From a virus: a stretch of 64,000 nucleotides of DNA. Both the position numbers and the translations under genes were made by a program. The stretch lies in IMG/VR virus record IMGVR_UViG_3300049844_000277, positions 36,520-100,519 of that record. One strand, given 5' to 3'. Shown one piece after another: positions 9,086 through 62,261 of the stretch. The notes under the pieces were generated by a model that did no database searches, had not been told where the DNA came from, and saw nothing but the letters and a program-made list of their open reading frames with translations. How positions within the stretch are numbered: the first letter of the stretch is position 1; each line of letters begins with the position of its first letter.

Positions 9086-10885
9086 TTAGTAACGCCCTTC
9101 CGGACCCATCCCAAATTCAGCCCCATAAGCATAGGCGGGTACCGGATGCGTACTGTGTAAATCAGACGCAGCGCCGGTTCGTGCCCCCTGCAGAAGGGAA
9201 TCCTTTAGATATCGGTGAGCCAAGCGCGCCATCCAGTCAGGATGTAGCAGTGGATTACGTGCCATCGGACGCATCAAAAATTCTACCCGAGGTAATGTAG
9301 TGGCGACAGATACTTCCGAAATTTTATGCTCATTCAATTTCTGTATAACTGATGGTGTTAACGGAGTTCCGGCGGTGAAGTGAAGAACTTCTTTACCGAG
9401 TACACCACCCTCCGCCTGCTTCAACGGAACAGATTTACTGTGCCGTGCTGCGGCATCTCTATACGTTGAGTAAGGAATAACCTCGCCCTTTACCAACGTA
9501 GGATGCTCATCAGTATGCTCGAGAACTTTGACGTGGTTGAGGTCCGCGCGGGCAACCAACTCAAGGTGCCGCTTGTCGACATTGAGTCCTTGTCCATGAT
9601 AGATGTCGTGCAATGTGTCCACGAGGTACTGTCGTCCGACACCAAAGCCCTTGTGATGAATGAGCTCGTCTGGTTTCGGAATTCCTTCTGATAAGACATC
9701 CCCCGCCTCTACTTTCTGTCCCACATGAACTAAGATTTTTAAGTTTGGTCCGGCGTAATGTTGTAAAGCATCAACATGCACGTATGTTCCACCGTGCGGA
9801 GCTGGGATTATTTTTGTAATAGTACCTGCGTGCTCTGCTAGCGGTGCTTTATTAATGAAGGTCTGGGGGATTTCCAAAAGCTGACGGATACCAGACATCC
9901 CCTCTAACTTGGGGGATGTACCTTTGAGTAACCGCATACCGTGCTTAGCGCCGAGCGCCATTTGAGTCAACGGTTCGGAGATAGACTGGGCGGCACGGAC
10001 TCCGACGTTAACACCGATAGCGTGCGGACGTCCTCGCTCATCTAGACCCTGGCACTTACGACAGACGCCATCCTTGGTGACGCAGGTCATTGGTGAACGC
10101 ACGTACACTGTACTGACCTTTGCCTGAAGCTTAGACGCCACTTCTTTTGTAACTAAATCATTCCGATGAAATCCAGCCTGGTCTCGAGATAAATAGCGGT
10201 CAACAATATTTCCATCGGAACTATTCATTGCGAGACCGTTATCAGTTCCGCAATCGTCCTGGGTAATAACCAGCGGATACATATTGTTGGTCATCACCTT
10301 AGACATATCGCCAGGCTCTGCGATGGCCGTATAGGTTTGTACGATGTTATGTCGCGCTTCGTTTCCTGCGGCCCAATGGTCAGCAGCGGACAACCCTTCG
10401 GCGTAGGACTTACTGATTAGCCAGGGATTTATCTCCCCTTTGCTTGTCGTAGTCGCAACCGGGGACGCAATGGTTTTCATCAGCTGCGGAATATTGCCGC
10501 GCGCACCCGACAATGCCATCGAGGTCATAGAACCTGGATGCTTTTTGGTGTGCTCAAGCATCTTCTTTTGTACATCTAAAATAATCTTCTCTTTGGCGTC
10601 TCTATTGTCCGCGTTTTTAATTGCGGCGACAGCGGGCTGCATGATGCTGTCGCGTTCTTTGTACTCCGGCGTAATGTCATCCAACCCTACAGAGACACCT
10701 TCAAGCGTAGAGATGTCGTCCCCTAAGGTTTTTAGCTTAGAGACAATTTCTACGTATTCGGCAGGATCTTCCTTGGCCAAGTCCAACATTTTCTGTTGGA
10801 ACTCTTTTTTATTTAGTGTGCCCGTAATGTGATGCTTCCCGGGCAGCAGGCTATTGACCAGAAACCTACCTAACGGCTGAGCCAT
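9086..10885 (-). CDS. rpoC: DNA-directed RNA polymerase beta' subunit, C-terminal module (trigger loop / regions F-H). This is the split second half of beta'.
   Basis: N-terminus [31 protein letters not shown] aligns with E. coli beta' [54 protein letters not shown] matches the AAQSIGEPGTQLTMRTFH motif. [20 protein letters not shown] matches [20 protein letters not shown]. Confidence 0.85.
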   Translation of the reverse strand: [599 protein letters not shown]

Positions 10886-11750: not shown

Positions 11751-12380
11751 TTAAGTACCGGCTCCACGGGAACCTCCTTCACAGAACATCATTCGCCGTA
11801 GGTCATCAGCATGCTGCTGGTCAGTAAGGACCATTTGCTCCAGCATGACCTTAAGCGACAAATTATCTCCGGCCATGTCTGACAGATGTCGTAACTCTTC
11901 AATCAATTGCTTCTCAGTTTGTAGAAGAGTCATGAAAATCTGGTGGAGGTCACTCATGTTCGGGATGACACCTACCTTAGGAATAGGTTCTCCGCCTAAC
12001 GCCGTAATCTTCATTGCGAGATGGTAGGCGTCCATCCGCTCTTCTTTGATGTGCTCTTTAAAGTGGTCGTAGATAACATCTCTAAAGTGCGCACGAATAC
12101 GATCGCCATAATTCATATACATGAAGATGATGGTATATTTGTAGCGCAGCAACTTATTACACTGAGCCACTACCTTATCCTGGGCAACCGCGAAGAATCC
12201 TTCCTCGGCCGATACAGCAAGAGGATGAGCACCAGCAGATGCTGTGGCAAGCGGAGGCATGGCGAACATCTCCTCCGTGTGCGGGGATGACTCCATTGTG
12301 TCCGCCATTGGACTGCTAGGAACTGGAAGACTCGAGCCACTCTCAGCCATGGAAGTACCCACTTTGTAGCGCTGCGTCAT
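11751..12380 (-). CDS. Ferritin-like (bacterioferritin/Dps-fold) four-helix-bundle protein.
   Basis: KEERMDAYHLAMKITALGGEPIP matches the EExxHAD.L.ERI..L.G.P helix-B pattern of bacterioferritin/Dps. C-terminal LEQMVLTDQQHADDL matches the ILESEEEHIDYL pattern of the last helix. Confidence 0.5.
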   Translation of the reverse strand: MTQRYKVGTSMAESGSSLPVPSSPMADTMESSPHTEEMFAMPPLATASAGAHPLAVSAEEGFFAVAQDKVVAQCNKLLRYKYTIIFMYMNYGDRIRAHFRDVIYDHFKEHIKEERMDAYHLAMKITALGGEPIPKVGVIPNMSDLHQIFMTLLQTEKQLIEELRHLSDMAGDNLSLKVMLEQMVLTDQQHADDLRRMMFCEGGSRGAGT

Positions 12381-15300
12381 GTACCCACCTCAACTCGAGT
12401 ATTGAGCGTAATCTCCCCGCGCTTATAGGCGGCGAGAGCTTCTTCTCTATTTTTGAAATGGCGTACTTTATCGTTCGCGGAACTCTCGGCTTTGGACGCC
12501 AAATGTACCCCAAGCATAGCTTCCATTCGTGGCGCTACCATCAAGCTATCTTTTTCACGGTCCGAGAATAGAAGGTTTGAGAGAGTCATCCCCTTCACTT
12601 CATCTATCGCGGGCTTCAGTACGGGAACGTGGATTTGGAATGTGTCCCAAACTACGAGGCCGTCGTTGACCGCGAAAATTTGTGTGTCAGGAACAATAAG
12701 GTCATAGACGGTTTCTTTTCTTAATACCTCGACCGACTCTACTAGATCCCAGGTAATTCCAACGTTCTCAACGATCCTTGCCCAAGCATCGACATCTGGT
12801 GTTTTGGCCGTCCGGAAAAAATGCAACATACGCCGAGCGTTTTGCCTCGTAACGTATGGAGCCTCTTTTCGTTTAGATCGTAGCGTAGCCAATGATGCGC
12901 AGAACGAACTATCTTCCGCGCACGGACCAGTACGGCTGGAGGCGAGGGTCATTAGATTTTTAGGAACAGGAACAATATCCACCTGATCCACAAGTTCATC
13001 AGCTTCTAGGAGGTTCAAAGCCTCCAAAGATTTAGAGTTGTTCCAAATTCCTCTACGAAGCCAGGACACGTTACGCTGGAGGTCTACGGTACTAATAGGT
13101 ATCGTATAAGCTACAGCTTTTTGGAGACGTCCCTCCTTCGGATATGCTTCGCTCACAGAACACCGGACGCCGATAGTTTGTAACAAAAAACGTAATGAAG
13201 CTGCTAACGCAGCAGACGACGTGTGAAGGGCGGCCATCACTTGAAGTTTTGCCTTACCGGCGCTGACAGTGAGTGTACCGTCACCGTTCAACATTCCGAT
13301 GAGCACACCCCACCGAGCCTCCTCAGACCAGTCCCCAAACGCTGGCACGCGTTTCGAGAGACAAGAGCGTCCGGGTACCCTCTCATCTAAGTAACAAGTC
13401 TTGAACAGCTCAACGCACTTCTGCGCACCACTAAAGTGGTCTTTGATACTTTGTCCTGTTATTCCGTTAGATGCGTCGTGTACCTCACGATACGTATTTC
13501 GCTTAATGAGCTTACCCTCAAACGCATTCACCGCGGCAGCAAAGCGTTCACGGTGCACGTCACTAACTTTCGTGTACCCGAAATAATGATCGGTTTCACC
13601 CAGTAAGAAACCGTCGGACAAGAATGCGCCGACCATCCATCCAAACTCAAAATCCCCCTGTGACCCCGTTAACGGTAAATGCCGCACAACCGGAGCTAAC
13701 TTTCCAACGGAATCCGAGGGCGCTGTTGCTTCGATCTGACCTGTTTCATGGTTATAAATACACAACGACTCATTCGTCGACGCCGTAACGCTTAAACCAC
13801 GACGCATTTCTACTTTCGCCACTTCGCATCCGTCTTCAATCGTAAGTCCTGTCACCGGGGACATTACTGATTTACTTGCGGAGTGGTCGTAAGAAAGAAC
13901 GCGAAAACCCTCCGGAACGGCGTAACTGCGAGCACCATTCTTGTCGATACTATAGGGCTCCTCAGCGTGTGGAATCTCTTGAAGCTCCGCTTCCACCAGC
14001 GCCTGTACCGCTGAGGTCCAACAAACACGAGTCTCTGCCGCGAATTTCATGGCTGTCTCCTTGGCTTCATCGCCAAGGAGCGCTTTACAAGCCGCACCTT
14101 CTGCTGTCAACACAACTTTCGTCGAACCCAAGAAACAGTTTCCATCGTAATCCGCATTGAAGCCAAGCTCTGCGAACGGATTTACGCGAATCGTCTTCCC
14201 CGCAACAGGGACGGCGTGAGCGCCAATAAACCCGTACCGGTGGAGAGTCGGAGCGCGATTCACCATCACCGGACGCTCCTTAATCTCCGCCATCAACGCG
14301 TCGTGCGCTGCCGGATGTTTCTTTTCCAACATCTCTTTCGCTTGAATGGCTCCGAAGCCGCGACGGATAAGGCGTGAGATAATAAACTTCCCGTACATGC
14401 CCCAAAGCATGTCTATCGGAATACCTATCTCATCCATGCTCAGAGAGCCGTCTGGAGCTATGGTTCCGCGGCCGGAGATATCTTGCTGCCGCTTCATTAT
14501 TCGTTTTTGGAAAAAGGAACTGTTCCCCGATACGGAAGGTTTACCGTTACGGCGAACAACTACAGTACCATTAGGGACTGTCACACAATACACGGTTCCT
14601 TTGTACGGGTACGCCTCGGTAAAAGAGCCCGACTCAATGGTGACATCAGAAAACCCCCGCACAGAAAAAAGATAATGCGGGAGATGGTGATCCTTAACTG
14701 GCGGACAAATTCCTCTAAAAATAACTTGGTAACCTATTTTTGCAGCGAGATGCTGTAGGTCATCAATTAATTGTAAACTAGCGGTACCGGCGTGAGCACT
14801 CAGCGGTTTACGCCGATAATGGGTTTTCGGGTTTTTCACGTTCTTCGCTAACGAAGGGTGAAGGGTTCCATCTCCACGCAGATATCCGCGCAATAATCCC
14901 TCTAACATAGCAGAAGGCCACGCTAAAATATCTGAAGATAAGTGTTTACTCTCGCACCCACGCCCGCAATGATGCGTTAACCAATCCGCCAGTGAGCGTA
15001 ACCTAATAGTCCACCAGATTACCTGGTATCCATCTTTACGCGTATATGTTTTGCGTACAAAGGGAATATCCAATTTTTTAAAGCACAAATCCACCGCGCG
15101 AACGTGTGGAGACGTTGCGGCTTGACACAAAGAAACCTGGGTTCCTGTTGTGGAAATCCAACCTTCCGCAATCCACCAACCTACAAACTCCGCAAAGGCC
15201 AAAGGATCTGGAGTAAATGTTCCTACTAAATTAGCCGTACGCCGTTTTTTGTTATCCGTAGAAACTTCACACGTATCTCCCGCGAAAACCAACTCCGGAA

Positions 15301-18300
15301 AAGTACCCTCCCACTCCTCAGCGCTAACCATTACCCTCCGGCGGTCCGTGCCTATAAAAGTATCCGCGCGTACCTTTTCCCACGGAGTCCAGACATAGAG
15401 CGCCTTACCGTTACTTACGCGCTTACGGCGATACGAGACTACATGTTCGTGGTTAGGTGTTACACATAAATCAAGTTCACGGCTGCGCGTATGTATCAGA
15501 TCTCCGTCGAACGGCATGGATACTAACGCGGTCGGCTTCTGCCATTCAAATTCCCGGGTGTCTAAGTTAACCGTAGCGACACGAGTTTTTCCGGTGTACT
15601 TAGAAAAACGAACCCACCCTTTTTCTGTAAGAATATCTGTTTGATCATCGTAACATTTTGGCGTAGTTTTCCCGGTAATATGCTCGAGAAATCCCTTTAC
15701 GTTTCTCTTTTGGAGTTTGGGGTTATCTGATTCGTGCGTACCAATCACGGCGCCTACCGCGTGAAACAAGTTCTGACGAAGCTTCGCTTGTTCATCCGGC
15801 GGAAGAATTGGAGATTCAATTTGCTTCCGTAATGACTGATTATGAAGGATAGCGCTTTGGTACAGGTAGTTCGAATCACCTACTACGAGCTCAGAGCCAC
15901 TCTTCCCCGGAAGAATGGGTCGCATTATTGGAGGAAGAACAGGCAACTTGGATAGGACGTACGCATCTCCCGGCTTGAGCTCCTGCCGATTCAGCGCCTC
16001 AAGGAACTTCAACTGCTTTACTGCGTCATCTAGCTTCGTACCGGAGAGCGACTTAATAGAGTTACGGAGCTCCGCGATACGCGCCTTAACGTCGATAGCG
16101 TTAAGCTTTTTCTTTACCGCAGCGCCACCATTCGTATGGTGATACTGGTCAAAATCTTTCGCGGTCATCCCCAGCAAGCGACGGGCAGGGTCGGCGAATA
16201 CAGGATTTACAACGGGCTCGGCGAGCTCAATGTGGCTCCACCGTGTTCCAGTGGTACCGCCAGTAACCGCGGGGTCAAACAATCCCCCACGTTCAGCGGC
16301 CAAATCTTTAGCGCGTACTAACTTCTCATTTTGTACTTCGCCAGATGACATCCGTAGAATGTCTTTATCGGTAAGCGGAGAGAGCGTGCTGATACTTCCA
16401 CGCGAATCAACTTTGACCCCTGCGCCATGCAGCATACCGATGAACTTGTCATAAACGAACGACGACTTGAGTGGAGGGAGAGGCAGTCCCAGCTGAATCG
16501 CCCGCCAGAACTCATCGTTCTTCTGGCTCTTAATAGCCGCCGTCTCTCGAAGCACGTTCCGCGCATTATGTGCAACGAGGGCATTGAACTCCATTTTACC
16601 GACGGCTTTCGCGCCTTCGTCACCGCCCTTAATTGGCTGCTGATTAACGTCGTACGCACCCGTACCGCGCGCGGCGTAGTTGGTCTCCGTGGTCTTAAAC
16701 AAGCGAAGTACGTATTGCGGCCCAACCAGGATTCCCGGAATCTTTTTACCCGACACAGGGTCTATCAGCGTTTCCTTGTCCTTGACCTTGTGCTCCTTCA
16801 GTAAATCCTTTGCCCACTGTACGTTGTCACGCCCTGAAAAGTTTTCAACGACAATAGGTTTACCGATTTTCTTGGCAACCTTAGCGACACACGTCTCTAG
16901 TATTTGCGACGGATTGATTCGGGAAATTACGCCAGCCGAGGTATACAAAACCTCAATCGGCTTACCCGTCTCATCTTGAAGCATCTTGTGATCGGGAACA
17001 ATAAGGGAAACAACGCCCTTGTTTCCGTGGCGTCCTGTGTTTCCGCACCATACTGATTTACCATTTCTGCGAACATACAAAACATGTCCAGGAACAGTTA
17101 CACAGTAAACTGGTGATTTGTACGAATCTACAAAACATTCCACCTGACCCTTCTGTCGTTTGATATGTCCATGATTCACAGTAGGTGTTAATTTCGAATT
17201 AATAATTCGTACCTGCCAATAATCACGACACCAAAAATCTTTACCTTTGATTGTTTGATACCCTTCAGCTTTCGCTAACGACACATTAGCAGCTTTACCA
17301 ATATGTAGTGCGAGACGCTGAACATCATCCGCCAAACGTTTGGATGTTGTTTTGTAGCATATCGGTTGGCCATTTTTAGTATGACCGTCACCCCACATCA
17401 ACCAGTTGAATAGCGTCTCTTGATCCGCTCGAGACCAAGCGAACACCTCAAGCGGGATAAATTTCTCGTAAGACTTACCGAACTGTTTAAAGTACTGCCA
17501 ATATTGCTTGGAATGAATACGAACCTTATCACCTGTGTCCGTGAATAAAATCCCTTCCTCACGAAGAAACTTTTCTAACTGTTTTCGATTTGGCTGATTA
17601 ATTTGCGTAATCTCTATGCCGTAAGTACCGGATTCTTCAATCGTAATGAGATTACCTTCAGATAAAAACGCACCGAGAAGAGCGGCTAAGGTTTTAGTCG
17701 GAAGCGCTTTATCATCTAAAACACGTAAACCCCGGCCCCCTTGTCCCGCGCGCACAGTTATCGAGTCAAATACAAACGACTCAGGAGAGTGCCCCACCCA
17801 AATCCCATCCTTCTTATAACTGACCCTTTTTCCTGCGATTTCATACGCCGGTAAAAGTTGGAAAGATTTCTCGTTGCGCGGTTGAACGTACATATGATGT
17901 CCGTCGGTCACAAACAAATCTACCTGTTGTGATTCGATGCGGTACATCCGTCCGCCTTCTGGATACGAATGAATTGCGTCGGGCTCTAGGTACTCGATAT
18001 TTTCGCCATTCTGTAACGTACAAATCTTATCCGTAATACGTACATCCGCTATCGGTTTCCACCCTTCCCACGTGAGAACCTCAGTCTCTGCATCATAACA
18101 GAGCTTGTCTCCGACGCGCATCGGCTCACGGGTCTTAACCGTTACAACGACACGCTTGTCCGTCACATAAACATCCATGACTTCACCTTCGAAGTCGTGG
18201 TCCCACGTACGAACAAGTTCCCGATACGGCGTAACTAACGTCTTCTTTAGGTTACCGAGAAGCGCATCAGACGCCGAAAGTTTACCTCGTGTGACTCCAG

Positions 18301-34143: not shown

Positions 34144-37100
34144 GTGCCCACAACCCGAGGAGCTCTCATGGAGAAGCCCGCAGAAATCTGCAGCGGATGT
34201 CCTCGAGAAATCGAGACAGAGACCCATCCCTACGGTTATGTTGAATCGTGGATTGATTCAAACGCCGAACTCATCATCATAGCGGAAGCTCCTGTCTGCG
34301 ATCGCCACGGTAACGTTCCTAGCTCTTTCGACGATGACAGCGGTAAAATCATTCGAACCGCCGTATCCGAGCTACGTAACTTACCTTCGCACAGTAAGCT
34401 AGCGGTCTCGTATACGTACGCAGTACTCTGTACAAGCAACCAGGGCGACAAAGACCCCGAAAAAGCCGTACTGCAACGGTGCCGTACGCTGCTCCAAGCT
34501 GACTTACGTCGCGCAAACAAGAACGCCGTCCTGCTGGTAATGGGTATGTCTGCCCTTCGCGCACTAGAAATAAAAGCCGCGAAGTTGAAGGACATGCAGG
34601 GGCGATTACTCCAAAAGCAGAAAATTGGAGAAGGTGATGACGCTCCGATATTCGATGTCGTCGTAACCGTCTCGACAAAACAGTTGTTCGCGATGCCGGG
34701 AATCTACACGACGTTCGTAGCGGACCTGCGACGAGCTGCGGACGCTGCGAGCGCAGGTGGATTAACACACGTTACCCCACTCGAAAAACTAACCGAAAAA
34801 TACGTAATCCCGAAAACAATCGAAGAAGTACGCCAAATCTGTCGCGAAATACTGAATTATCAAGAAGGTAAAGTATCTGCAGATAACTGGCCTATCTCTG
34901 TAGACACCGAGACAAACACCAAGTTTCCACACCGAGAAAACTTGAAAGTATTGGCGGTGTCCTTCGCATGGGCGGAGGGTAAAGCTACTGCAATTCCATT
35001 AGAGCACCCCACTACACCCTACGCGTACCAAGACGCGATACCGTACGTACGCGAAGTCTTAGCGAGCAAGAAGCCGAAGTTCCTTCATAATGCTAAGTTC
35101 GACCTTAAAGTCTTCATGAAAGCGGGCTGGCCGATTAACGGGTTCGCTTGGGATAGCATGCTAGGGGAACATGCTCTCGAAGAAGATAAAAAGGGACAGT
35201 ACGGATTAAAGCAGTTGACCCGTACTTTCTTCCCGGAATTCGCGACATACGCCGACTCTCTTCAAGAAATGCTCACGCACGAAGAGGGCGACTCGCAGCT
35301 CGACAACCTGAGGAAAGCGCCAAAAGCTTCAACTTCGAAAGATGGGGGATTTGAAAGTATCCCACTTCCCACGCTATTGCTTTATGCGGCAGTCGATGCA
35401 GATATGACACGGCGGCTAGTGTTACTGCAGGAAAAAAGAATTACCGACGAGCAGAACAGAGTAATCGTAGAAACGAATATAACGAAGAGAGAGCAGGCGC
35501 TGGCGATTTCGGCGAGGAAGAAAATACGGCTGAGAATTGCGCCGCTACATAGTGAGACGGAGATGTTGAAGAAGTACATGGTGCTCTACCCCGTCCCAGA
35601 ACTCTGTTCCGCTGATAAGCCGGTAAGACAACTAGTACTGAACAACGTATTCCCCGTTACCCCAGCTCTCGCGAGAATGGAGTTTAAGGGCATACGGATA
35701 GACAGACCGTACCTAACTACGTTGCGTGAAGCGTTGGGAAAAGTCGTCACAGAAACCGCTGCAGAGCTACAGGATATGGCGGGCAGAGAGATAACTCTCA
35801 ATAGTCCGGCAGAGATAGCTGAAATCCTGTTCAACAGCGGGTTTATACATCCAACAACTCACGCCCCCACGACTTATCCCCTCACAGGCATCGGTAAGAC
35901 AAAAACGGGACAGATACAAACCACCGAGAAAGTGATGCAGTACTTGGTGGCGAAGTATCAGTGCCCCTTTGCAGCTAAAAAACTAATCTACGCCAAGGCA
36001 TATAAAGCGAAAAATACGTTCTGTCAGAATGTGTGGGATCTCTCGGAGCTCGACGGGTATCTACACACGAACTACAACCAGCACGGCACAAATTCGGGTA
36101 GACTGTCCTGTGTCGCGGGAGAAACCGTACTAGATACTAATTACGGAAAAATCGAGATACAGAATCTCGATCTGGAGAAGATGCCGGGGATTACCATCCA
36201 GACCCACGAACTCCGCGAACAACCGATTCTACGTAAAATAGAAAAAGGCATTGAAGAAATGTTCGAGGTCGAACTCGAAGACGGGCGCACCATCACCGTG
36301 ACTAAAAAACATCGCTTCTTGACGCCGACGGGGTGGAAACGACTCGAGGAACTGTCAGAAAATGCCGAAATACTCTGCGCCGCCTCCGTGGGTAGTGGAC
36401 CAAATATGCGACTCGTTACAACCCGGATAAAAAGCATACGTCCCGTAGGTCCTAAGAAAGTCTGGGACCTCACAGTAGCGGTCGATCACTCTTACATCGC
36501 CCACGGATTTGTTAACAAAAATTCCAACGATGAAAACATGCAAAACATCCCCAAGAAATTGGCGGGTGTTAACATTAAGAAAGTGTTCCTCCCGGACGAT
36601 GATTCGTATGTCTTCGTCAACGCTGATGCGAAGGGTGCCGAAGTACGAATCCTAACCGCCTACTGCCGAGACCAAGCGCTCATACAATCGCTCAACGCGG
36701 GGCAGGACACGCATTGTTTCATCGCGTCCAAGATTGTTGAAATCGTACGTCAGAGTCCTGGTGCAACGGCGGTTCTCGGAAGCATGAATCTAAGCGATGA
36801 GTATCCTCTGACGTACGAAGACTTCGCGGCTAGAGACAAGCTAAAAGAAACCAATAGTAAGTACGGGGCGATGCTCGACAAATTCAGAACCGCTGTCAAA
36901 CGCGTAGTGTTCGGTATTCTGTACGGCGCCGGTCCTCAGAAAATTGCGGAAACTATTGGTATCAGTCTAGAGCAAGCACAACAGCTCATTCACACTCTGT
37001 TCGCTTTGTTTCCGTCCATCAAGACGTACATGGCGCAGACAAAGTGGGAACTACAACAATTTAATTTAGTCGAAACGTTCTTCGGTAGACGCCGTAGATT

Positions 37101-37527
37101 TAGTGTATCGGGAGCGCCGAAGTATCAAATAGGGAGAGCTGAACGTCAGACAGTTAATTTTAAAATCCAAAGCACAAGCTCTGATATCGTAATGGGACGA
37201 TTACTAGCAATCGAAGAACCTCTCAAAGATTTGGGAGGTAGACTTCTATTGACAGTGCACGACAGCCTTGGGTTTCAAATCAAGAAAAAATATATCCGAC
37301 AGCTACCTGATTTCATTTATACGTATTTGGAGAAGGGTGCAGCAGACGCCCATCCATGGCTCCCAGTCGCATTTAAATGGGACTACGAAGTTGGGTCATC
37401 ATACGGCGAACTCAAATCACTGGAATCCTACCTTGCCAACACGAAAATAGAGGAATACTCGAACGATGCCTACGTCGCCGAGGCTTTCACAGAAGAAGAC
37501 GCAAGAACCTCCCTCTCCGAACCCTGA
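34144..37527 (+). CDS. polA: Family A DNA polymerase (Pol I-like) with a 3'-5' exonuclease domain, interrupted by a mini-intein.
   Basis: - Exo I: ISVDTETN.
- Exo III: YAAVDADMTRRL.
- Pre-motif A GRLS//SNDENMQNIP matches GRLSSSDPNLQNIP.
- Motif A: FVNADAKGAEVRIL.
- Motif B: RTAVKRVVFGILYGAG.
- Motif C: LLTVHDS. Confidence 0.9.
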   Translation: MPTTRGALMEKPAEICSGCPREIETETHPYGYVESWIDSNAELIIIAEAPVCDRHGNVPSSFDDDSGKIIRTAVSELRNLPSHSKLAVSYTYAVLCTSNQGDKDPEKAVLQRCRTLLQADLRRANKNAVLLVMGMSALRALEIKAAKLKDMQGRLLQKQKIGEGDDAPIFDVVVTVSTKQLFAMPGIYTTFVADLRRAADAASAGGLTHVTPLEKLTEKYVIPKTIEEVRQICREILNYQEGKVSADNWPISVDTETNTKFPHRENLKVLAVSFAWAEGKATAIPLEHPTTPYAYQDAIPYVREVLASKKPKFLHNAKFDLKVFMKAGWPINGFAWDSMLGEHALEEDKKGQYGLKQLTRTFFPEFATYADSLQEMLTHEEGDSQLDNLRKAPKASTSKDGGFESIPLPTLLLYAAVDADMTRRLVLLQEKRITDEQNRVIVETNITKREQALAISARKKIRLRIAPLHSETEMLKKYMVLYPVPELCSADKPVRQLVLNNVFPVTPALARMEFKGIRIDRPYLTTLREALGKVVTETAAELQDMAGREITLNSPAEIAEILFNSGFIHPTTHAPTTYPLTGIGKTKTGQIQTTEKVMQYLVAKYQCPFAAKKLIYAKAYKAKNTFCQNVWDLSELDGYLHTNYNQHGTNSGRLSCVAGETVLDTNYGKIEIQNLDLEKMPGITIQTHELREQPILRKIEKGIEEMFEVELEDGRTITVTKKHRFLTPTGWKRLEELSENAEILCAASVGSGPNMRLVTTRIKSIRPVGPKKVWDLTVAVDHSYIAHGFVNKNSNDENMQNIPKKLAGVNIKKVFLPDDDSYVFVNADAKGAEVRILTAYCRDQALIQSLNAGQDTHCFIASKIVEIVRQSPGATAVLGSMNLSDEYPLTYEDFAARDKLKETNSKYGAMLDKFRTAVKRVVFGILYGAGPQKIAETIGISLEQAQQLIHTLFALFPSIKTYMAQTKWELQQFNLVETFFGRRRRFSVSGAPKYQIGRAERQTVNFKIQSTSSDIVMGRLLAIEEPLKDLGGRLLLTVHDSLGFQIKKKYIRQLPDFIYTYLEKGAADAHPWLPVAFKWDYEVGSSYGELKSLESYLANTKIEEYSNDAYVAEAFTEEDARTSLSEP
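36109..36522 (+). mobile_element. Intein 5: mini-intein (138 aa, no endonuclease domain) in the DNA polymerase.
   Basis: - Starts CVAGETVLDTNYGKIEI.
- Ends VWDLTVAVDHSYIAHGFVNKN with +1 Ser.
- Boundaries codon-verified (tgt at 36109 = Cys; aat at 36520-36522 = Asn). Confidence 0.8.
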
Positions 37528-37792
37528 TGTGGTAGTGCACACGCCTCTAGCGCTACACACCAAGAACCTCAAAGAAGCTGTAGGTACCCTCGTCATCTTT
37601 TACCTCGTAAACAACGGAAGACCTCTTCGAGGAATTTTGTTGGAATATGACGATGAGACAGTAGTTATCGCTCCTAAAACTACAATTCCCCGCGAAAAGA
37701 TAGTAGCCTTCTATCAGGCCAAAAATGCTCCTCCCAAAAACAAAGAAGTTCCAAGATCTTCTGTTCGTCGATACAGAAACGACGGGACTTGA
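37466..37792 (+). CDS. Small hypothetical ORF overlapping the Pol end and the exonuclease start. A GTG start near 37529 is possible.
   Basis: ORF only, with overlaps on both sides. Confidence 0.3.
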   Translation: MPTSPRLSQKKTQEPPSPNPDVVVHTPLALHTKNLKEAVGTLVIFYLVNNGRPLRGILLEYDDETVVIAPKTTIPREKIVAFYQAKNAPPKNKEVPRSSVRRYRNDGT

Positions 37793-38297
37793 CCCTACTA
37801 AGCATGAGATACTCGAGGTCGCGGCGATACGTACAACGCCTGATGCGAAGCAGGTGCTGACGACGTATCACGCGAAAATAAAGCCACTACGTATCGAAAC
37901 CGCGGAACCAAAGGCTCTTGAGATAAACAAGTATTCCGCGGAGGAGTGGACCTTTGACAAGTGCGTCAATCCTGAGGTTGTGGTAAGAGCCCTAATGGCT
38001 ATGTCGCACAATACGGTGCTAGTAGGGCACAACGTATCGTTCGATGAGGGATTTCTTACGGCTTTATTGCGTCAATTCTACGCGACAGTTCCGTGGGGAT
38101 ACCATAAGATCGATACAGTCGCACTCGCGTGGCCCCTATTCATGTACACTCCCGCTGAAGGAGTGAGCTTAGAAAAGGTTTGTAGATATCTCGGTACTAC
38201 AAACAAACCTGAGCATCGAGCAATGAACGATGCCCTCGCGTGCAGGGATGTGTATTTAAGTCTGATGTCTCGTTGGGAAAAAGCTTGTGAAGCGTAA
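37725..38297 (+). CDS. DnaQ-like DEDDh 3'-5' exonuclease.
   Basis: - Exo I: LLFVDTETTGLDP.
- Exo II: LVGHNVSFDEGFL.
- Exo III: HRAMNDALACRDVY. Confidence 0.8.
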   Translation: MLLPKTKKFQDLLFVDTETTGLDPTKHEILEVAAIRTTPDAKQVLTTYHAKIKPLRIETAEPKALEINKYSAEEWTFDKCVNPEVVVRALMAMSHNTVLVGHNVSFDEGFLTALLRQFYATVPWGYHKIDTVALAWPLFMYTPAEGVSLEKVCRYLGTTNKPEHRAMNDALACRDVYLSLMSRWEKACEA

Positions 38298-38333
38298 CCT
38301 GTAGATACGTAAAATCTTTGTTCCAGTACATCT

Positions 38334-38355
38334 GGAGTCAGCGTAGCGCTGACAT
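38334..38355. repeat. Palindrome-containing repeat, copy 1 (ggagtcagcgtagcgctgacat; hairpin gtcagcg-tag-cgctgac).
   Basis: Seen directly. A second near-identical copy lies 174 bp downstream. Flanking similarity extends the repeat to about 30 bp. Confidence 0.6.
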
Positions 38356-38507
38356 GCTTCCCAGAGCTCTTAGTTTGGTAGCCTAGCTAACAAATATAAG
38401 GTCAATGGCCGCCGGGGAAAAATGAACTCCCTGAACCCCACCGAGCTCGAGCAAACAATAAATATATAGTAGAACATAGAAAGATCTTTCCTGCCCGGTA
38501 CCATTTC

Positions 38508-38529
38508 GGAGTCAGCGTAGTGCTGACAT
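38508..38529. repeat. Palindrome-containing repeat, copy 2 (ggagtcagcgtagtgctgacat).
   Basis: One mismatch relative to copy 1. Both copies lie in the 496-bp convergent intergenic region between the exonuclease gene and terminase. Confidence 0.6.
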
Positions 38530-38772
38530 ATGGCCCGATGTTAGCGCGAAGCCTAGCTTCAAGCTAAGAGAAGGTCATTATGGGCCGCCTCCGCCTCAAG
38601 GGCAATATCCTTAAGTATGTGGCGCCTATATTGGACATTCCGCGGAATCATAGAACTAAGAGGAAAGACGTAGGGAGCGTAGGGATTCGAGCTGTAAACA
38701 CAGCGCCCGCGTAGTGCGGGCAGCCGTAAGCTGTTCAGATAAGCTATGAGATAAGCTTGAAATCAACCATAT

Positions 38773-38787
38773 CCTCACTGAATGAGG
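38773..38787 (-). terminator. Possible weak terminator hairpin (cctca-ctgaa-tgagg) 7 nt downstream of the terminase stop.
   Basis: 5-bp stem, then a U-containing tract on the minus-strand transcript (UUGAUUUC). Weak evidence. Confidence 0.3.
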
Positions 38788-38793
38788 AATCCC

Positions 38794-40398
38794 TTACGCG
38801 TAGAATTTCAGGTCATTAGACACAAGCTTATGTGCAAACCATCCGAACAGTTGTGCATGAAGACAATCGTCAGGTAATTGGGGACTGTGTCGCCAAACCT
38901 TTTTACCTGACGACGTAACTTCTTCATAGACGTTCAGAATATCTTTAATCGCTTCACGTGATTCTTCTCGTGGCGGATATACAACCGAACCCCGCTTCAG
39001 AAACATGAGATAGTTATCAATCATCGTCGTGCGGTCAGCGAGATACCTGTCCAAGCCATTGTGCTTTATCGGCTGACCTAACGCTCCGTACTGCATCATG
39101 TGCACGCGGTGAGCGCCTAGACGGTCTCGTAGCGTCGCATTAGGTAGTGCGCCTTCGCCAGCGTCACCGATGACCATCGCAACAGCGTAATGCTGGCAAA
39201 TCGCAGCGATATTCTCGACATCTGCGACGGCGTTGCTTCCTGGGTAAATTCGGAAGTAGAGCGTACGTAACTTCTGTGTTGCGGGATGAAAGCCCCACAC
39301 CCATAGGACCGTACGGCTAACGCCCGTCGTTCCGCCGCCCGACCAATCAACGCCGGCAACAGTAATCGAACAGCCTTCCAAATTTTTACCTGGCGTAGGG
39401 GATATCTGGGGGCCTGTGCACAGTGCTTCGAGCTCCTCCAGTGAAATAAGTCTACGACCTACGGCATCTGATACACCCAAGACCTCATTGCGGAACTTAG
39501 CCGCGGAAAACATGTCATGGTCACGGAGGATATCATCCCAACGCGCCTGAGCGTCCTCGACTGCACTCGGCTTTTCGGGCGTATTTTTTACACACGACGG
39601 GATGTTCAGCGGCATAATCAATTGAGAAATGTGAAAGCCTTTAATGGAGTGTTTTCCAGTACCCTTGTCGGCAATACGCATATCGATCCACTGCCCTGCG
39701 CGGGGATTTAAAACCTTCCCACAATTAAGACAAATGGGGCCGTGTTTACCGAGAGACTTCTCACTAATAACGAAGTTGTATTTACTACACCCCTCGCACT
39801 TCATCACCCATTCGCTCTGAGAAGACTGATCCCACAAAAATTGAATGGAGTTCTCCATAGTTTTCGGAGTTCCGGCGTAAGTTTCGAACCGGTACGCGGA
39901 ATTCTTCATACACGCCAAAATTACGGGAATGACACTGTCGTATAATACGTCCTGTACTTCGTCAAACAAACAACGGTCAGCGGAAAAACCACGCGCACGA
40001 TCCGCGTCATCGGTCGCGTACGTGAACCCGTTCTCTGACCCGTTCGTATACGACCGATGTAATACGCGATCCGCGTGATCTGGAGATAAGAAGTATTTCT
40101 TAATCAACGGCGAATACGACAATGTTTTACCAACACGCGTGTTAGAGAACAAGAGAGTTTGCTCGCGTGAAGGACTGGAATAGTAACTCTTGAAAAATGG
40201 GCGAGAAACAGATTCAGATATAATAAAGTTAGCCAGAGATGTGCTTTTACTGACCTGACGCGCAGTCATCAGAAGCGTCGATTTATAACCTCCGTCATAT
40301 ATCGATTTGAAAAATGGATAGTCTGTAAGACTAAAGGGAGCGCCGTCTAGCCATAATAGACGCTCAGCCACTTCCGAAAGACGTTTACTTCCAATCAC
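38794..40398 (-). CDS. terL: Terminase large subunit (ATPase + nuclease).
   Basis: - Walker A-like: TARQVSKSTSL.
- Walker B: RCLFDEVQDV.
- C-terminal RNase-H-like nuclease region: VAGVDWSGGGT.
- Overall 534-aa architecture typical of TerL. Confidence 0.8.
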   Translation of the reverse strand: MIGSKRLSEVAERLLWLDGAPFSLTDYPFFKSIYDGGYKSTLLMTARQVSKSTSLANFIISESVSRPFFKSYYSSPSREQTLLFSNTRVGKTLSYSPLIKKYFLSPDHADRVLHRSYTNGSENGFTYATDDADRARGFSADRCLFDEVQDVLYDSVIPVILACMKNSAYRFETYAGTPKTMENSIQFLWDQSSQSEWVMKCEGCSKYNFVISEKSLGKHGPICLNCGKVLNPRAGQWIDMRIADKGTGKHSIKGFHISQLIMPLNIPSCVKNTPEKPSAVEDAQARWDDILRDHDMFSAAKFRNEVLGVSDAVGRRLISLEELEALCTGPQISPTPGKNLEGCSITVAGVDWSGGGTTGVSRTVLWVWGFHPATQKLRTLYFRIYPGSNAVADVENIAAICQHYAVAMVIGDAGEGALPNATLRDRLGAHRVHMMQYGALGQPIKHNGLDRYLADRTTMIDNYLMFLKRGSVVYPPREESREAIKDILNVYEEVTSSGKKVWRHSPQLPDDCLHAQLFGWFAHKLVSNDLKFYA

Positions 40399-46683: not shown

Positions 46684-46721
46684 GGGCTTCTACGTACGCG
46701 TAGGAGCCCTTTCTTTTTCTT
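46684..46721 (+). terminator. Rho-independent terminator: 11-bp stem (gggcttctacg/cgtaggagccc, one G-U), 4-nt loop, then tttctttttctt.
   Basis: Seen directly, 32 nt after the stop of 46266..46652. It is preceded by a 26-nt polypyrimidine run (cctcctccccctccccttccccctc). Confidence 0.7.
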
Positions 46722-46728
46722 AGGTACC

Positions 46729-47331
46729 ATGGACCTCTACTGTCTTCGTGTTCGTAGGAACATCGCTGGACGTAAATTTCCCTTCGATAGAGTGTATCTC
46801 GCGAAATACGGGGATCACGTTATATTCAAAAGATTATTCAGGTATGCCTTCATCCTTCCCGTTGAAGGCGTACTAAAGGAAACGCTGTACTGTCTCCCCA
46901 TTGAAGACAGCATGACGCACGCATTCGACAGAGTAGAAACGCCTGAGAAAATTCCAGATGTAGAGTGGAAGACGCTCATCGACTCGACGGACTGGGTACT
47001 CGCGGTACCGATTCTATCGAAGTACGTGACCGCTAACATGCCGAGATATATTATTGCCAAGTCCACGGTGCCCCGAAGAGACAAGAAAAACTCTAACGCG
47101 TGCGCAAACCCGTTTCCAAACATGACGTACTTGCAGACACCCGAGCAAAACATTCGGCCAATATGTGTCGCATGTCCGAACTTTATCCAGCATCAGAACG
47201 GTCACTGCGAACTTGGAGATAAGCTCTGCTACGACTCTCTTTCCCTGGGAATCCGAAATCACTTTGAAGAAGGCATGATGGTTCCTCCTGCCCCGGAAAA
47301 AGAACAAGTGACTGAGGAGGGGAACGACTAA
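46729..47331 (+). CDS. Hypothetical protein (200 aa), first gene of the RT operon. The track ORF starts at 46630, but the upstream part crosses the terminator and is non-coding.
   Basis: First ATG after the terminator, in frame. The stop overlaps the RT start (TAATG). Cys-rich C-terminus: CVACPNFIQHQNGHCELGDKLC. Confidence 0.5.
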   Translation: MDLYCLRVRRNIAGRKFPFDRVYLAKYGDHVIFKRLFRYAFILPVEGVLKETLYCLPIEDSMTHAFDRVETPEKIPDVEWKTLIDSTDWVLAVPILSKYVTANMPRYIIAKSTVPRRDKKNSNACANPFPNMTYLQTPEQNIRPICVACPNFIQHQNGHCELGDKLCYDSLSLGIRNHFEEGMMVPPAPEKEQVTEEGND

Positions 47332-48467
47332 TGCCTGTCTACAAACAAAATTTCCTTGAGCGAATTGAAGTACGCGAGCCACTCATCAAAGGCGTACCCC
47401 TTATCGTCGATGACTGGAGTCTGGCATTCCAGCTAGGTTTTACGGGTAAGACCGCGTGGTACATCATCCATGAACGCGCCAGTATGTACCGGGAGTTCAT
47501 GCTGAAAAAGAAGTCTGGGGGTCTCCGTAGAACGTTTGATCCAACTAACCTCCTGCGCATTTTCCAGAAACAACTACGCGCACGCATTCTGTTCCCGCTC
47601 GTATCTCGCCTAGGTCCGCACGTAGCCGCGTATCAGGTCGGTAAGAGCACGCTTGATGCGGCAAACTGGCACCTGCGCGAGTGTAAAATCTGCGACGACA
47701 CGACCCGTCCCGGCACGAGTCCTGTGAAACATGAGTGTCCTCGACGGGGTGTGAAGTTCAAAATGGATTTGAAGGATTTCTTTCTATCGACTCGTCGGTC
47801 CTGGATACGACAGTATTTCCACGAAGTCGTCGGATACAATCACTACGTCTCGTCGATTCTGGGGCACCTACTGACGACGAGTTATAAAGATGAGCGGAGA
47901 AAAGACAGGAACGGCGTTCCGCCAGGCGCATTAACAGCTGGCGATATTTGTAATCTCATCTGTGATTGGAAGATAGATCAACCGCTTATGGCGGCACTAC
48001 CCACAGGCTGGAAGTACACACGGTACGCCGATGACTTGTATTTCTCGTACGACGCACCCCTTCCATCAAAAGAAGTAAACAAGATAATCCGACTAGCCTC
48101 GGACACCATCACCGGCTCCGGTTACCGGGTAAATTGGAAAAAGCTCCAAGTGCAACACTGGAGCCGGCCCCAGCGAGTACTAGGTATCAATATCAACAGA
48201 AAACTAAACATCCCTGCGACTGAGTACCGTCGAATGCACATGATTCTGTATAAAGCAAAGAAGCATGGATTCCAGGCGCAACTTACGTGGGCAAAGAAAG
48301 CCGATGTTCCGGAACTTCACGCCTGGATAACCGGCAAACTGAATTACTACGCGCGATTCGCACCAGATAAAACCAATAAACTACAACGGCTTTATCAAGA
48401 AGCGAAGGACGCGAATCCAAGCGAAGAGGCCGCGGTGTTCAACTTTGGAACCGGTGCAAACCCATGA
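47331..48467 (+). CDS. Reverse transcriptase (retron/DGR/group-II-like clade) with a Cys/His-rich insertion.
   Basis: - Motif 1: KKKSGGLRRTFDP.
- Motif 2a: AAYQVGKSTLDAA.
- Motif A: VKFKMDLKDFFLS.
- Motif B: VPPGALTAGDICNLI.
- Motif C: YTRYADDLYFSY.
- Motif 6: VLGINI.
- Thumb: GKLNYYARF.
- Insertion: CKICDDTTRPGTSPVKHECP. Confidence 0.85.
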   Translation: MPVYKQNFLERIEVREPLIKGVPLIVDDWSLAFQLGFTGKTAWYIIHERASMYREFMLKKKSGGLRRTFDPTNLLRIFQKQLRARILFPLVSRLGPHVAAYQVGKSTLDAANWHLRECKICDDTTRPGTSPVKHECPRRGVKFKMDLKDFFLSTRRSWIRQYFHEVVGYNHYVSSILGHLLTTSYKDERRKDRNGVPPGALTAGDICNLICDWKIDQPLMAALPTGWKYTRYADDLYFSYDAPLPSKEVNKIIRLASDTITGSGYRVNWKKLQVQHWSRPQRVLGININRKLNIPATEYRRMHMILYKAKKHGFQAQLTWAKKADVPELHAWITGKLNYYARFAPDKTNKLQRLYQEAKDANPSEEAAVFNFGTGANP

Positions 48468-49840
48468 ACATGTACACGGTTTGCCACGCGTACGATGCAC
48501 GTAACGCAAGGTCAGATGCACTTGCGCTTTTGTTCAATACTCCCGACACTAAAAAAATAGCAGGAATCCCTGAGCTCTCCGAAATATATCCCAACGGATA
48601 TTTCGTCACTAGTATCTCCGACATAAAATCAGGAGACCCCTACAGACACTCATACTACCAAAGACAAAGATACTCCCACAATCCTGCTCCTTACACGATG
48701 GTATCCATTTTCGCTACGTACCCCCGTCCAGATGAGGCAAAACTAAACAGCGAAGATATTTGCTTCTTCGTAAATGGAAAAACATATCAGGTTAATCTAC
48801 GTACCCGCTACAACCACTGCCTGTCGTTGTTCAAAGCGGTAGGTTGTGCGCAATGCCCTGATAACGGGCTCCCCTGCGTATCCCAGGAAGCCGAAGAGCT
48901 AATCGAGCTTGATAAGAAACTCACCGACGCCGAAAGGCCTGTGTATTTCAACGAGACAGCGTTCTCGAACAATACCGAGTTCTTGAACGATATCGACGAC
49001 ATAGAGTTCTTAAAGTACCTACAAAGAAAGCACCCGTCCCTCGGTGACTTCAAACTTGTCAAACCCGGATCAACAAGTCCACGTTCGTTCCATAGTACTT
49101 TCCGCCCGTACTGGGACCACGACTTTTCGCTAGTTCCACGTAATGAAAAAGAAAAGTCAGACGCGGCATCTCGAGCAGCACGGACACGTAAGTTCAAGAA
49201 GGAAGAATGTCCTCAGTGCGTCATCAAAGATAGCTGCTCGAATGCATCCCGGTGTGATGGTAGATATCCGCCACAGGAGACGATTATCAAGCAGGCGAAT
49301 GCGGAGCTTACTGCGGCGATAGCCGGGTCGATACTTCCCGAGTGGGCGATATGGGAAGTTGCTCGAGGCGCGGGACAAACAGCAAAACATTCCAGGTGGC
49401 ACATCATGCTCACCGGAATACTATTAGACCGATATGGAAATGGGTCTCTCCGCGCTACAGTTCACCGCGCAAAAACAGACATCGATGAGTACAAAAGACT
49501 CAATACGTACGAAGAAATCGCTGAAGTATTTAACTTAGCGAAAACGGAAAAAGATGTGCCGCCCGAGCGTGGACCACTGAGGAGCTTTGAGCTCCGCGCA
49601 GTTTGGTGGTTGGCGCTTCTTGCTCGCTCAACCGCTCGAAGGGCTACAGGTTGGGGAGGTTCCCGGTACGTCGTAAGTATCGGTGTAGATGAGAAGACCG
49701 GTATCTCGCTCGAATGGACAAACGGGCGAGATATATCCCACTGGCACAGCAACAATCTACGTAAGATTGAAGATGTATCGAGGTGCCTCACGCCGAATAG
49801 TTTGTACGGCGTAGCTAAGGAACAATTCGTTCAGCGGTAG
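48464..49840 (+). CDS. Hypothetical protein (458 aa) translationally coupled downstream of the RT.
   Basis: Start overlaps the RT stop (ATGA). Cys clusters (CAQCPDNGLPC, CPQCVIKDSCSNASRC). No family recognised. Confidence 0.55.
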   Translation: MNMYTVCHAYDARNARSDALALLFNTPDTKKIAGIPELSEIYPNGYFVTSISDIKSGDPYRHSYYQRQRYSHNPAPYTMVSIFATYPRPDEAKLNSEDICFFVNGKTYQVNLRTRYNHCLSLFKAVGCAQCPDNGLPCVSQEAEELIELDKKLTDAERPVYFNETAFSNNTEFLNDIDDIEFLKYLQRKHPSLGDFKLVKPGSTSPRSFHSTFRPYWDHDFSLVPRNEKEKSDAASRAARTRKFKKEECPQCVIKDSCSNASRCDGRYPPQETIIKQANAELTAAIAGSILPEWAIWEVARGAGQTAKHSRWHIMLTGILLDRYGNGSLRATVHRAKTDIDEYKRLNTYEEIAEVFNLAKTEKDVPPERGPLRSFELRAVWWLALLARSTARRATGWGGSRYVVSIGVDEKTGISLEWTNGRDISHWHSNNLRKIEDVSRCLTPNSLYGVAKEQFVQR

Positions 49841-55960: not shown

Positions 55961-56040
55961 ATTCAGGGTATTCAGGTATTCAGTTATCCAATAAAATCAA
56001 GTACTTAGAACGAAAAATGGCTGAATACCCCCTGAATATC
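55961..56040. repeat. Iteron-like cluster: TATTCAG core three times direct (attcagggtattcaggtattcag), then twice inverted (ctgaataccccctgaatatc).
   Basis: Seen directly in the AT-rich half of the 1.16-kb non-coding region. Confidence 0.6.
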
Positions 56041-56108: not shown

Positions 56109-56436
56109 ATTTTGTTCAGTATTCCTTTTAACCAAATGCCCGAACTGGCGAACATTGATCACGTGCCATCCCGCGCGCCCAACATTGATCCCGTGCTGTC
56201 CGAGCCGACCCTCAGCGGGGTCAAGCTCCCGTGCTGTCCGCGCCAGCCTCCGGCCGGCCCCGCTTCCGCAAGGGAAACCTTCCCGACGTCCCGACGAAGA
56301 CTATACCCTAGCCTAGCCTTATCCTCCACCCCCGTCCCCACTCTCGCTGTAGCCGTAGATTTCCTGGCAAGTCTCGCCAAAGGCCTCCAGCGGGCCGTAG
56401 GACCGACGAACCGGCGTAACCCGGTCCGACCCCTTG

Positions 56437-56482
56437 CCCGACCCCCGAACGTCGCTCCTGCGCCCGCCTAGGCCCCTTCCCG
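56437..56482. repeat. 46-bp direct repeat, copy 1 (cccgacccccgaacgtcgctcctgcgcccgcctaggccccttcccg).
   Basis: Identical to copy 2 at 56562..56607, period 125 bp. Embedded in a GC-rich CCGAC-rich segment. Confidence 0.7.
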
Positions 56483-56561
56483 CCGGTCCGCCGAATCCGC
56501 CTCAAACCGCCCTGAGTGGCCTCCAGGCGCTCAAACGCCCCAGACCCGACCCAAGACCCTA

Positions 56562-56607
56562 CCCGACCCCCGAACGTCGCTCCTGCGCCCGCCTAGGCCC
56601 CTTCCCG
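56562..56607. repeat. 46-bp direct repeat, copy 2.
   Basis: Identical to copy 1. Confidence 0.7.
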
Positions 56608-56888
56608 GCCTAGACTCGAGGGGAACTCTCGCCGGGAGAAGACCCTTGAAGCCCCTACCCGCCCTGACGCTTCGCGACGTCCTCAAGAACGAAATTGAAA
56701 ACGATCGACGGAACGTCGAACAGATTTCCGTCTCTCGCCAGGATTCAGTTAACCGTTCAATCGCCATATGTGCGCGCCGGTACATCGAAGCGCTGGACTT
56801 TGGCGATGAAACGTTGTTGTTTGATGCCGAAGATAATTTGCGGCTTGCGCTTGATAACGTTCGTTCTTGATTATTCGCTTACTTCAAA

Positions 56889-62122: not shown

Positions 62123-62183
62123 TAGTCTCGACTTCACTAAACCGTCTGCTTCACCAGCGCGGTAGACCTTGGGGTTTAGTGAA

Positions 62184-62256
62184 CTCCCCGAGTAGGACTC
62201 GAACCTACGACCTAGCGATTAACAGTCGCTCGCTCCACCAGCTGAGCTATCGGGGA
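62184..62256 (-). tRNA. tRNA-Asn (anticodon GUU), 73 nt, no encoded CCA.
   Basis: Manual fold:
- Acceptor: TCCCCGA/TCGGGGA.
- D arm: GCTC-AGCTGGTG-GAGC.
- Anticodon arm: AGCGA-CTGTTAA-TCGCT.
- Variable loop: AGGTC.
- T arm: GTAGG-TTCGAGT-CCTAC.
- Discriminator: G. Confidence 0.8.
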
Positions 62257-62261
62257 AGATG

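Follow-up and report, generated by a model that had tools for sequence, protein, structure and literature searches.

A tandem array of structured RNA modules resembling retron templates in an uncultivated large phage

Retrons have been studied as single-noncoding RNA (ncRNA) bacterial immune systems and as genome-editing tools, and in classical retrons the ncRNA adjoins ret. The retron ncRNA is defined by hybridizing terminal inverted repeats, a conserved branching G, one to three msr hairpins, and a long msd stem-loop (PMC7736814). Engineered arrays of retron ncRNAs ("multitrons") served by one reverse transcriptase (RT) work (PMC10370050), and the hybrid RNA of the type VI retron Retron-Vpa2 combines a reverse-transcription template with a translationally repressed small open reading frame (ORF) (bioRxiv 10.1101/2025.10.22.683967). 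Here, we analyzed a noncoding region at 38298-38793 of a 64,000-nucleotide (nt) stretch of phage DNA, the window (positions 36,520 to 100,519 of IMG/VR record IMGVR_UViG_3300049844_000277). The region carries a new, well-supported structured-RNA module in a tandem array. Judged by the anatomy of its units together with a conserved retron-clade RT, it most likely represents a retron variant that is carried by a phage, arrayed, and unlinked from the RT gene, and we put the probability that it is a tandem array of retron-type (msr-msd-like) ncRNA modules used in trans by that RT at roughly 55%.

The region is a convergent junction. A + strand gene for an RNase_T-type exonuclease (37725-38297), with a family-A DNA polymerase gene upstream of it, runs in from one side, and TerL (38794-40398, - strand), with an Endonuclease_7 gene upstream, ends opposite. 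An earlier reading of the letters without database searches (the sequence-only reading) had located the region between a replication operon and a terminase/nuclease pair, and the annotation bears this out. It had also described two copies of a roughly 30-bp repeat, each with a 7-bp-arm hairpin. The 22-nt core of that repeat, GGAGTCAGCGTAG(C/T)GCTGACAT, does stand at 38334-38355 and 38508-38529, with a match in 0 of 100 shuffles, and each copy forms the hairpin, closed by a 3-nt loop (38337-38353 and 38511-38527). Length and copy number, however, had both been underestimated. The real unit spans 115 to 185 nt in the window and includes further conserved hairpins and a closing helix, and there are three modules, two canonical and one terminal variant (T unit). 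A search for additional copies, which had been proposed as a check, found no further occurrence of the core in the 64 kb but did recover the diverged third copy next to the first two, as well as arrays in relatives.

All modules, 115 to 190 nt long, follow one plan: a closing helix between terminal segments a2 and a1, two adjacent hairpins, H1 and H2, and then a long, sequence-variable hairpin, H3, often with an outer extension (Table 1). The closing helix, of 6 to 12 bp, is found in nearly all units and differs in sequence from unit to unit. H2 has a 7-bp stem and an NAR triloop, with the loop and closing pairs conserved. H1 is always a hairpin of 3 to 7 bp lying 0 to 1 nt ahead of H2 (about 40 units from 8 genomes), and its stems are unrelated in sequence (CCGG/CCGG, CATCGG/CCGATG, GCGAAT/ATTCGC, GTACG/CGTAC, and others); H2 stems, too, take many unrelated sequences. 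Both hairpins show compensatory changes, with no pair broken. Two extra GC hairpins of the sequence-only reading both exist on the + strand, but the one at 38705-38721 is no separate feature; it is the third copy of the H2 class. This H2 of the T unit retains the loop and two closing pairs of the other two, with the remaining stem changed on both sides. The a1 strand of the T unit overlaps the TerL stop codon, and in the orthologous T units of relatives L001, L002, L004, L021, and L057 (L numbers denote the loci compared) the closing pair is instead TGGTGATTC/GAGTCACCA.

Table 1. Positions of the array features and of the putative partner RT in the window (CM, covariance model; MFE, minimum free energy)
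Feature	Position	Strand	Remarks
Unit 1, complete module	38314..38485	+	CM R1 66 bits, E=1.5e-15; closing helix predicted by MFE fold of unit
Unit 1 closing helix	a2 ATCTTT 38314-38319 / a1 AAAGAT 38480-38485	+	unpaired G38320 after a2; G38479 before a1
Unit 1 H1 TCCAG-TACAT-CTGGA	38322..38336	+	abuts H2; differs from relatives' CCGG/CCGG on both stem sides
Unit 1 H2 GTCAGCG-TAG-CGCTGAC	38337..38353	+	7-bp stem, triloop UAG; 4 of 7 pairs compensatory, none broken
Unit 1 H3, long hairpin	38374..38394	+	invariant apex AGC-CTA-GCT at 38380-38388
Unit 2, complete module	38485..38668	+	CM R1 84 bits, E=1.8e-20
Unit 2 closing helix, 8 bp	a2 TCTTTCCT 38485-38492 / a1 AGGAAAGA 38661-38668	+	in whole-region fold and unit-only fold
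Unit 2 flanking Gs	G38493; G38660	+	unpaired G38493 after a2; G38660 before a1
Unit 2 H1 CCGG-TACCATT-TCGG	38495..38509	+	one G.U pair
Unit 2 H2 GTCAGCG-TAG-TGCTGAC	38511..38527	+	loop-closing pair is G.U
Unit 2 H3, extended	38532..38586	+	outer helix 38532-38536/38582-38586; inner stem 38541-38567; apex AGCCTAGCT 38550-38558
T unit (terminal variant)	38679..38797	+	a2 GTAGGGATTC 38679-38688, G38689, a1 GAATCCCTTAC 38787-38797; closing helix from folding
T unit H1'	38691-38704	+	
T unit H2 GCCCGCG-TAG-TGCGGGC	38705-38721	+	
T unit inner hairpins	including 38773-38787	+	
Retron-clade RT, 378 aa, YADD motif	47331..48467	+	Pfam RVT_1; best matches are retron RTs; putative partner

The case for RNA rests on how these stems vary. 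Across 20 distinct units, pairing holds in 98.4% of the cells of H1, H2, and the apex of H3, 8 of the 16 pairs have changed on both sides, and the covariation score was reached by 0 of 500 shuffles; when the 3' partners were slid by 1 to 3 columns as a control, pairing fell to 35 to 41% of cells. Every non-Watson-Crick pair in true H2 hairpins (28 of 28) is G.T or T.G on the + strand, and A.C never occurs. In L005, L061, L089, and L090 the second hairpins (H3 in L005 and L061) bear cUUCGg caps. Since only G.U wobbles are tolerated, on the + strand, and such caps are present, the module is a + strand single-stranded structure, most simply RNA. All three copies in the window share one orientation, their structure is specific to the + strand, and this is the strand of the upstream replication operon. 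A small structured RNA was among the roles that the sequence-only reading had put forward, and it is the one that the compensatory changes in H1, H2, H3, and the closing helix, together with the wobbles and loops, support.

Two of the other roles suggested there, operators for a dimeric regulator and a cos or pac packaging signal, belong with replication-origin iterons to a family of explanations in which double-stranded DNA sites are recognized. TerL and the replication module do adjoin the array, and the palindromic hexamers AGATCT, GGTACC, and GAGCTC are present. Yet the half-sites vary freely while staying complementary, and mismatches are only G.T and on one strand; recognition of double-stranded DNA predicts the opposite. 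Dimeric operators are unlikely also in view of a consistent asymmetry in the palindromes, with their G..T closing pair and TAG loop, and a cos or pac signal accounts for neither the RNA-type covariation nor the strand bias. The hexamers are not conserved in L005 and L061, where the structure is kept, and GC skew shows no inflection at the array. We consider double-stranded DNA sites scarcely credible here.

Stable hairpins between convergent operons, a position kept in all relatives, could also describe a transcription terminator or insulator, or a repetitive extragenic palindrome (REP)-like array that stabilizes RNA, and the fold z-score of the region, -3.1 on the + strand and -2.8 on the - strand, would suit such a function. 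The bidirectional terminators of the sequence-only reading nevertheless found no support: no U tract follows any + strand hairpin, and a terminator scan returned a single weak site, on the - strand, which is the chance rate. Sigma-70 promoter counts in the region were likewise at chance level. Relatives have genuine + strand genes beyond the array, which transcription can reach only by crossing it, and termination needs neither a conserved loop, nor closing helices, nor 2- to 12-fold repetition. This makes a terminator or REP-like role highly improbable.

Searches for known relatives of the module returned nothing. A covariance model, R1, built from 12 units detects modules at the array locus only within the window. 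The Rfam 15 covariance models gave no match at the gathering score, and at E up to 10 the window region and the L005 array had chance-level hits only. When 185,579 bacterial and archaeal genomes were scanned for exact matches to the H1-H2 core pattern, none appeared, so that host mimicry is not supported, and a tRNA/tmRNA search found none in the array region. A coding role was rejected after six-frame translation of five arrays revealed no conserved ORF. An apparent alternation of TAG, TGA, and TAA before an ..AAC motif is mere purine-purine variation, since TGG is just as frequent there. A CsrA sponge (GGA motifs), an anticodon-arm mimic, and a phi29 pRNA were weighed and informally dropped, as their defining motifs are not conserved across units.

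The closing helix with its flanking G residues recalls retrons. An invariant G stands before H1, and the 6 to 12 nt on its 5' side pair with the 3'-end segment of the unit, which is itself preceded by (A)G. With hyphens marking the helix ends, examples are unit 2 of the window (TCTTTCCT-g ... taag-AGGAAAGA), the T unit (GTAGGGATTC-g ... gag-GAATCCCTTAC), and units of L089 (u4, ACTCGTGGTTTA-g ... gaag-TAAACCACGAGT), L004 (u4, CGTAAATTCTT-g ... aaag-AAGAATTTACG), L090 (u5, ACACGATTCA-g ... aaag-TGAATCGTGT), L061 (u5, CTTCAGCTCA-g ... gaag-TGAGCTGAAG), and L010 (u1, GTATGATCG-g ... gag-CGATCATAC). Unconstrained MFE folding of each window unit predicts the helices. Compared with shuffled 3' segments, the helix reached p<=0.05 in 32 of 48 units and p<=0.01 in 19, for a combined P of 2e-27, a value that overstates the support for the helix, as orthologous units are not independent. 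A G directly follows a2 in every properly anchored unit (in the window G38320, G38493, and G38689, by position only). Even the distant relatives L006, L009, L012, and L070 have long-range helices of 8 to 10 bp in the arrangement a2-G ... G-a1, spanning 110 to 200 nt.

This layout, with H3 as the putative msd stem-loop, is that of the published retron ncRNA definition and matches retron msr-msd RNA. As a positive control, the same script applied to retron Ec86 of Escherichia coli C returned TGCGCACCCTTA-gc ... gacg-TAAGGGTGCGCA, two short hairpins, and a long hairpin within 170 nt. The phage modules resemble Ec86 (Eco1, type II-A) in their size of about 170 to 190 nt, in a2/a1 repeats of 6 to 12 bp with a G after a2 and a G before a1, in the order of two short hairpins and then a long variable one, and in sharing genome and strand with a retron-clade RT. 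The Ec86 locus itself (effector, ncRNA, and RT; L091, E. coli C NZ_CP029371.1 1217965-1223134) belongs to a P2-like prophage and directly adjoins its convergent portal and terminase genes, a prophage position near terminase that the array next to TerL echoes.

The candidate partner of the array is an RT whose best PADLOC matches are all retron RTs (RT_XIII at 1.6e-46, then III-A, XI, XII, and II-A). In NCBIfam it matches the retron St85, TIR, and Ec67 families, and its sequence matches in the PDB are only to the retron RTs Ec86, Ec67, and Ec78. The gene is on the strand of the array, 8.5 kb from it and beyond TerL (6 to 9 kb across the phage and its relatives), and no noncoding space adjoins it. 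A diversity-generating retroelement was considered and rejected: there is no pair of template and variable repeats, no repeat of >=40 nt around the RT, and the array spacers match nothing beyond chance in the window and the 21-kb loci. The RT shares an operon with two conserved, syntenic proteins, of 200 aa (46711-47328) and 458 aa (48464-49840). The 200-aa protein has about 47 metagenomic homologue clusters, and its structure model (pLDDT 73) has no PDB fold match at E<=0.001.

RT and array co-occur in the genomes compared. A full-length RT and an H1-H2 array occur in the same synteny in the window and in L085, L086, L087, L088, L089, and L090, and in L010 the RT, lying at the locus edge, is partial and the H1-H2 array has two units. 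Partial RTs at locus edges are also found in L006 and L007/L009, whose array region has the a2-G ... G-a1 closing helices; the hairpin scan found no H1-H2 modules there on the array strand. An RT thus accompanies the array region in 10 of the 10 genomes where its position is readable, two distant ones of these having closing helices only, and identity among these RTs ranges from 100% down to 34%. L063 has no array next to TerL, on a contig of only 2.5 kb.

If the modules are retron-type templates, the array would have a + strand transcript, produced from signals of its own or as the last part of the replication operon. The RT would recognize the H1-H2 platform of each module in trans and prime from the 2'-OH of the G after a2, which in the window would be the three Gs named above. 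Copying would start just 5' of the G preceding a1, in the conserved ..AAAG or ..TAAG, and run back through the spacer and H3, and each module would yield a different branched multicopy single-stranded DNA (msDNA) of about 90 to 130 nt. Candidate roles for this DNA are control of the two RT-linked proteins, counter-defense, or interphage competition; a further candidate, for relatives, is that it regulates translation of those small genes that have their ribosome-binding site within the terminal-unit a1. With more reserve still, we suggest that a phage lineage of about 170 to 195 kb possesses a core-like retron-derived system in which one RT would serve 2 to 12 diverged template RNAs encoded elsewhere and produce a repertoire of msDNAs during infection.

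Several observations, in addition to the relatedness of orthologous units, weigh against a retron-type function. The array is not contiguous with the RT gene, and the opposite-strand TerL and EndoVII genes stand between them, a separation found in relatives too; Ec86, in contrast, has a single module. The RT scores below all curated NCBIfam cutoffs and only approximates the retron signature motifs, reading DAANWH for NAxxH and RVLGININ (VLG) for VTG; these residues are also conserved in the L085 and L086 RTs, and the YADD motif is present in the window RT. The two proteins beside it match no Pfam, NCBIfam, or PADLOC model, including those for retron accessory and effector proteins, so that, unlike Ec86, the phage offers no known effector. 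Co-occurrence of RT and array could simply reflect shared ancestry of a syntenic block, the genomes examined offering no case of one element without the other. In comparison with Ec86, RT and array in this lineage are syntenic and core-like, not mobile cargo, and the msDNA is putative. A closed multihairpin RNA domain flanked by Gs is not unique to retrons, and we came across no published account of retron ncRNAs that are naturally arrayed, nor of systems like this one in large phages.

Most of the probability left by these doubts falls to structured RNA modules with another function, for example a multivalent platform or sponge that binds an RNA-binding protein of phage or host, or a set of small RNAs, paralogous to one another, that processing cuts from the replication operon's 3' end, with no relation to the RT. 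All of the structural evidence applies equally to such RNAs. The copy number varies (2 to 12), as it does in sponge RNAs, the conservation of the H2 loop and closing pairs suggests protein contact, the two-unit array of L010 ends in a canonical + strand terminator, and a crAss-like phage with a virion RNA polymerase (RNAP) makes abundant long intergenic ncRNAs of unassigned function. Left unexplained, however, are the invariant G after a2 and the G before a1, the closing helix of each unit that mirrors Ec86, and a conserved retron-clade RT that has no other candidate template RNA beside it. We regard RNAs independent of the RT as possible but doubtful.

A further alternative draws on the likeness of the array to the promoters of the phage N4 virion RNAP: three tandem hairpins at one locus with 7-bp stems and 3-nt loops with a central purine. 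The modules could accordingly be N4-type single-stranded DNA hairpin promoters, or some other cluster of early promoters, for an injected RNAP of the phage itself. H2 fits the format (a stem of 5 to 7 bp and a 3-nt loop with a central purine), at least three tandem copies occur at one locus only, and the phage encodes a 2836-aa protein in which RNAP beta/beta'-like segments are fused to virion-protein-like ones. A conserved linear ..ACAAAG.. motif precedes the units and does not recur in the rest of the window or in flanks. The idea that this A-rich motif is a general phage promoter was rejected, since it is confined to the array and absent elsewhere in the window and in the L005 and L061 flanks; the stretch immediately 5' of a1 is the better explanation for it. 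Geometry, strand, polymerase type, and the extra RNA-type structures all differ from N4. The N4 enzyme needs a single-stranded template 5' of the hairpin, with +1 about 11 nt from the loop center, but H1 occupies that position, 0 to 1 nt from H2. With the + strand forming the hairpins, an N4-like polymerase would transcribe to the left and so read the exonuclease and polymerase genes in antisense. The N4 virion RNAP is T7-like, whereas the RNAP pieces of this phage are of the two-barrel type, and the cUUCGg loops, H3, and the long-range closing helix would have no promoter role. Promoters of this kind are very unlikely.

The lineage in which the array is found is known from metagenomes. A nucleotide search against 50,697 phage records returned nothing similar, relatives by TerL are on metagenomic viral contigs of 170 to 194 kb, and one window protein has an identical copy on a 167,875-nt JGI contig. 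In the nearest cultured phages, Salmonella phage Arash and Vibrio phages D69 and D181, TerL is only about 30% identical and the genes are ordered differently. The position flanked by the replication operon and the TerL 3' end is occupied in relatives too, by 2 to 12 modules. Those with 81 to 84% TerL identity (L001, L002, L004, L021, L057, and L058) have three or four canonical units and one terminal variant unit, and their H2 is mostly GTCTCCG-TAG-TGGAGAC, a compensatory change relative to GTCAGCG/CGCTGAC in the window. L005, L061, L089, and L090 (TerL about 70% identical in L005 and L061) have 4 to 11 or more units, with H2 loops of UAA, CAA, AAA, or AGA.

Some relatives have small + strand protein genes downstream of the array. 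A small DnaJ-type zinc-ribbon protein (CxxCxGxG twice) is encoded between array and TerL in L004 (7840-8010, - strand of the locus), L021 (about 1300-1430), and L063 (about 1135-1330), and L004 additionally encodes a 73-aa lipoprotein there. The zinc-ribbon and lipoprotein genes, which the window lacks, each come after AGGAGTCACC(A/G)TG, a sequence that doubles as a1 of the terminal unit. The terminal-unit a1 of L004 and L021, GAGTCACC, holds a ribosome-binding site that is repeated before the small zinc-ribbon gene, a likeness to Retron-Vpa2. The window differs from that system in having no downstream small genes, its T unit abutting the TerL stop, and its RT scores best with type XIII and III-A models, not VI.

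Should the retron-type function hold, retrons would be not only a bacterial defense but also a viral tool for counter-defense, interphage competition, or phage gene regulation. A single RT would work in trans on an array of many template RNAs, orthogonal to one another and each with an a1/a2 pair of its own, and the system would be inherited vertically in a phage lineage, which raises the question of the use of multicopy single-stranded DNA to the phage. The array would be a natural counterpart of multitrons, which likewise place several retron ncRNAs in tandem on one transcript with a single RT supplied separately; those are synthetic and made for genome editing, whereas the phage array occurs in nature and consists of diverged paralogues that differ in a1 and a2. 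It would also offer ready-made orthogonal ncRNA scaffolds for multiplexed editing. If the link to the RT fails, the modules are still a new, well-supported structured-RNA family of uncultivated large phages.

Other features of the window were noted in passing. A palindrome-containing 15-mer around ATTCCGCGGAAT occurs twice (38634-38648 and 4476-4490; E=0.025), probably by chance. The 2836-aa protein (12377-20887, - strand) has virion-protein or lysis-like segments in addition to its RNAP beta/beta'-like ones, and a 599-aa protein with RNAP beta/beta'-like segments (9086-10885, - strand) matches the rest of the same PHROG profile (phrog_25354); judged by these matches, the two look like a split or fused virion-type RNAP. 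The family-A DNA polymerase (34144-37527, + strand; 1127 aa) contains an intein splicing domain at residues 678-793, and the homologous ORF in L001, at 1007 aa, is about 120 aa shorter. An inverted repeat, GGGTATTCAGGTATT / AATGGCTGAATACCC, lies at 55966-56030 inside a 360-nt gap that follows the helicase-primase gene. A noncoding GC-rich stretch at 56151-56667 (+ strand) has a direct repeat of 64 nt, with copies at 56419-56482 and 56544-56607 that are 89% identical, along with several shorter ones, and a single tRNA gene, tRNA-Asn (GTT), is located at 62183-62257 on the - strand.

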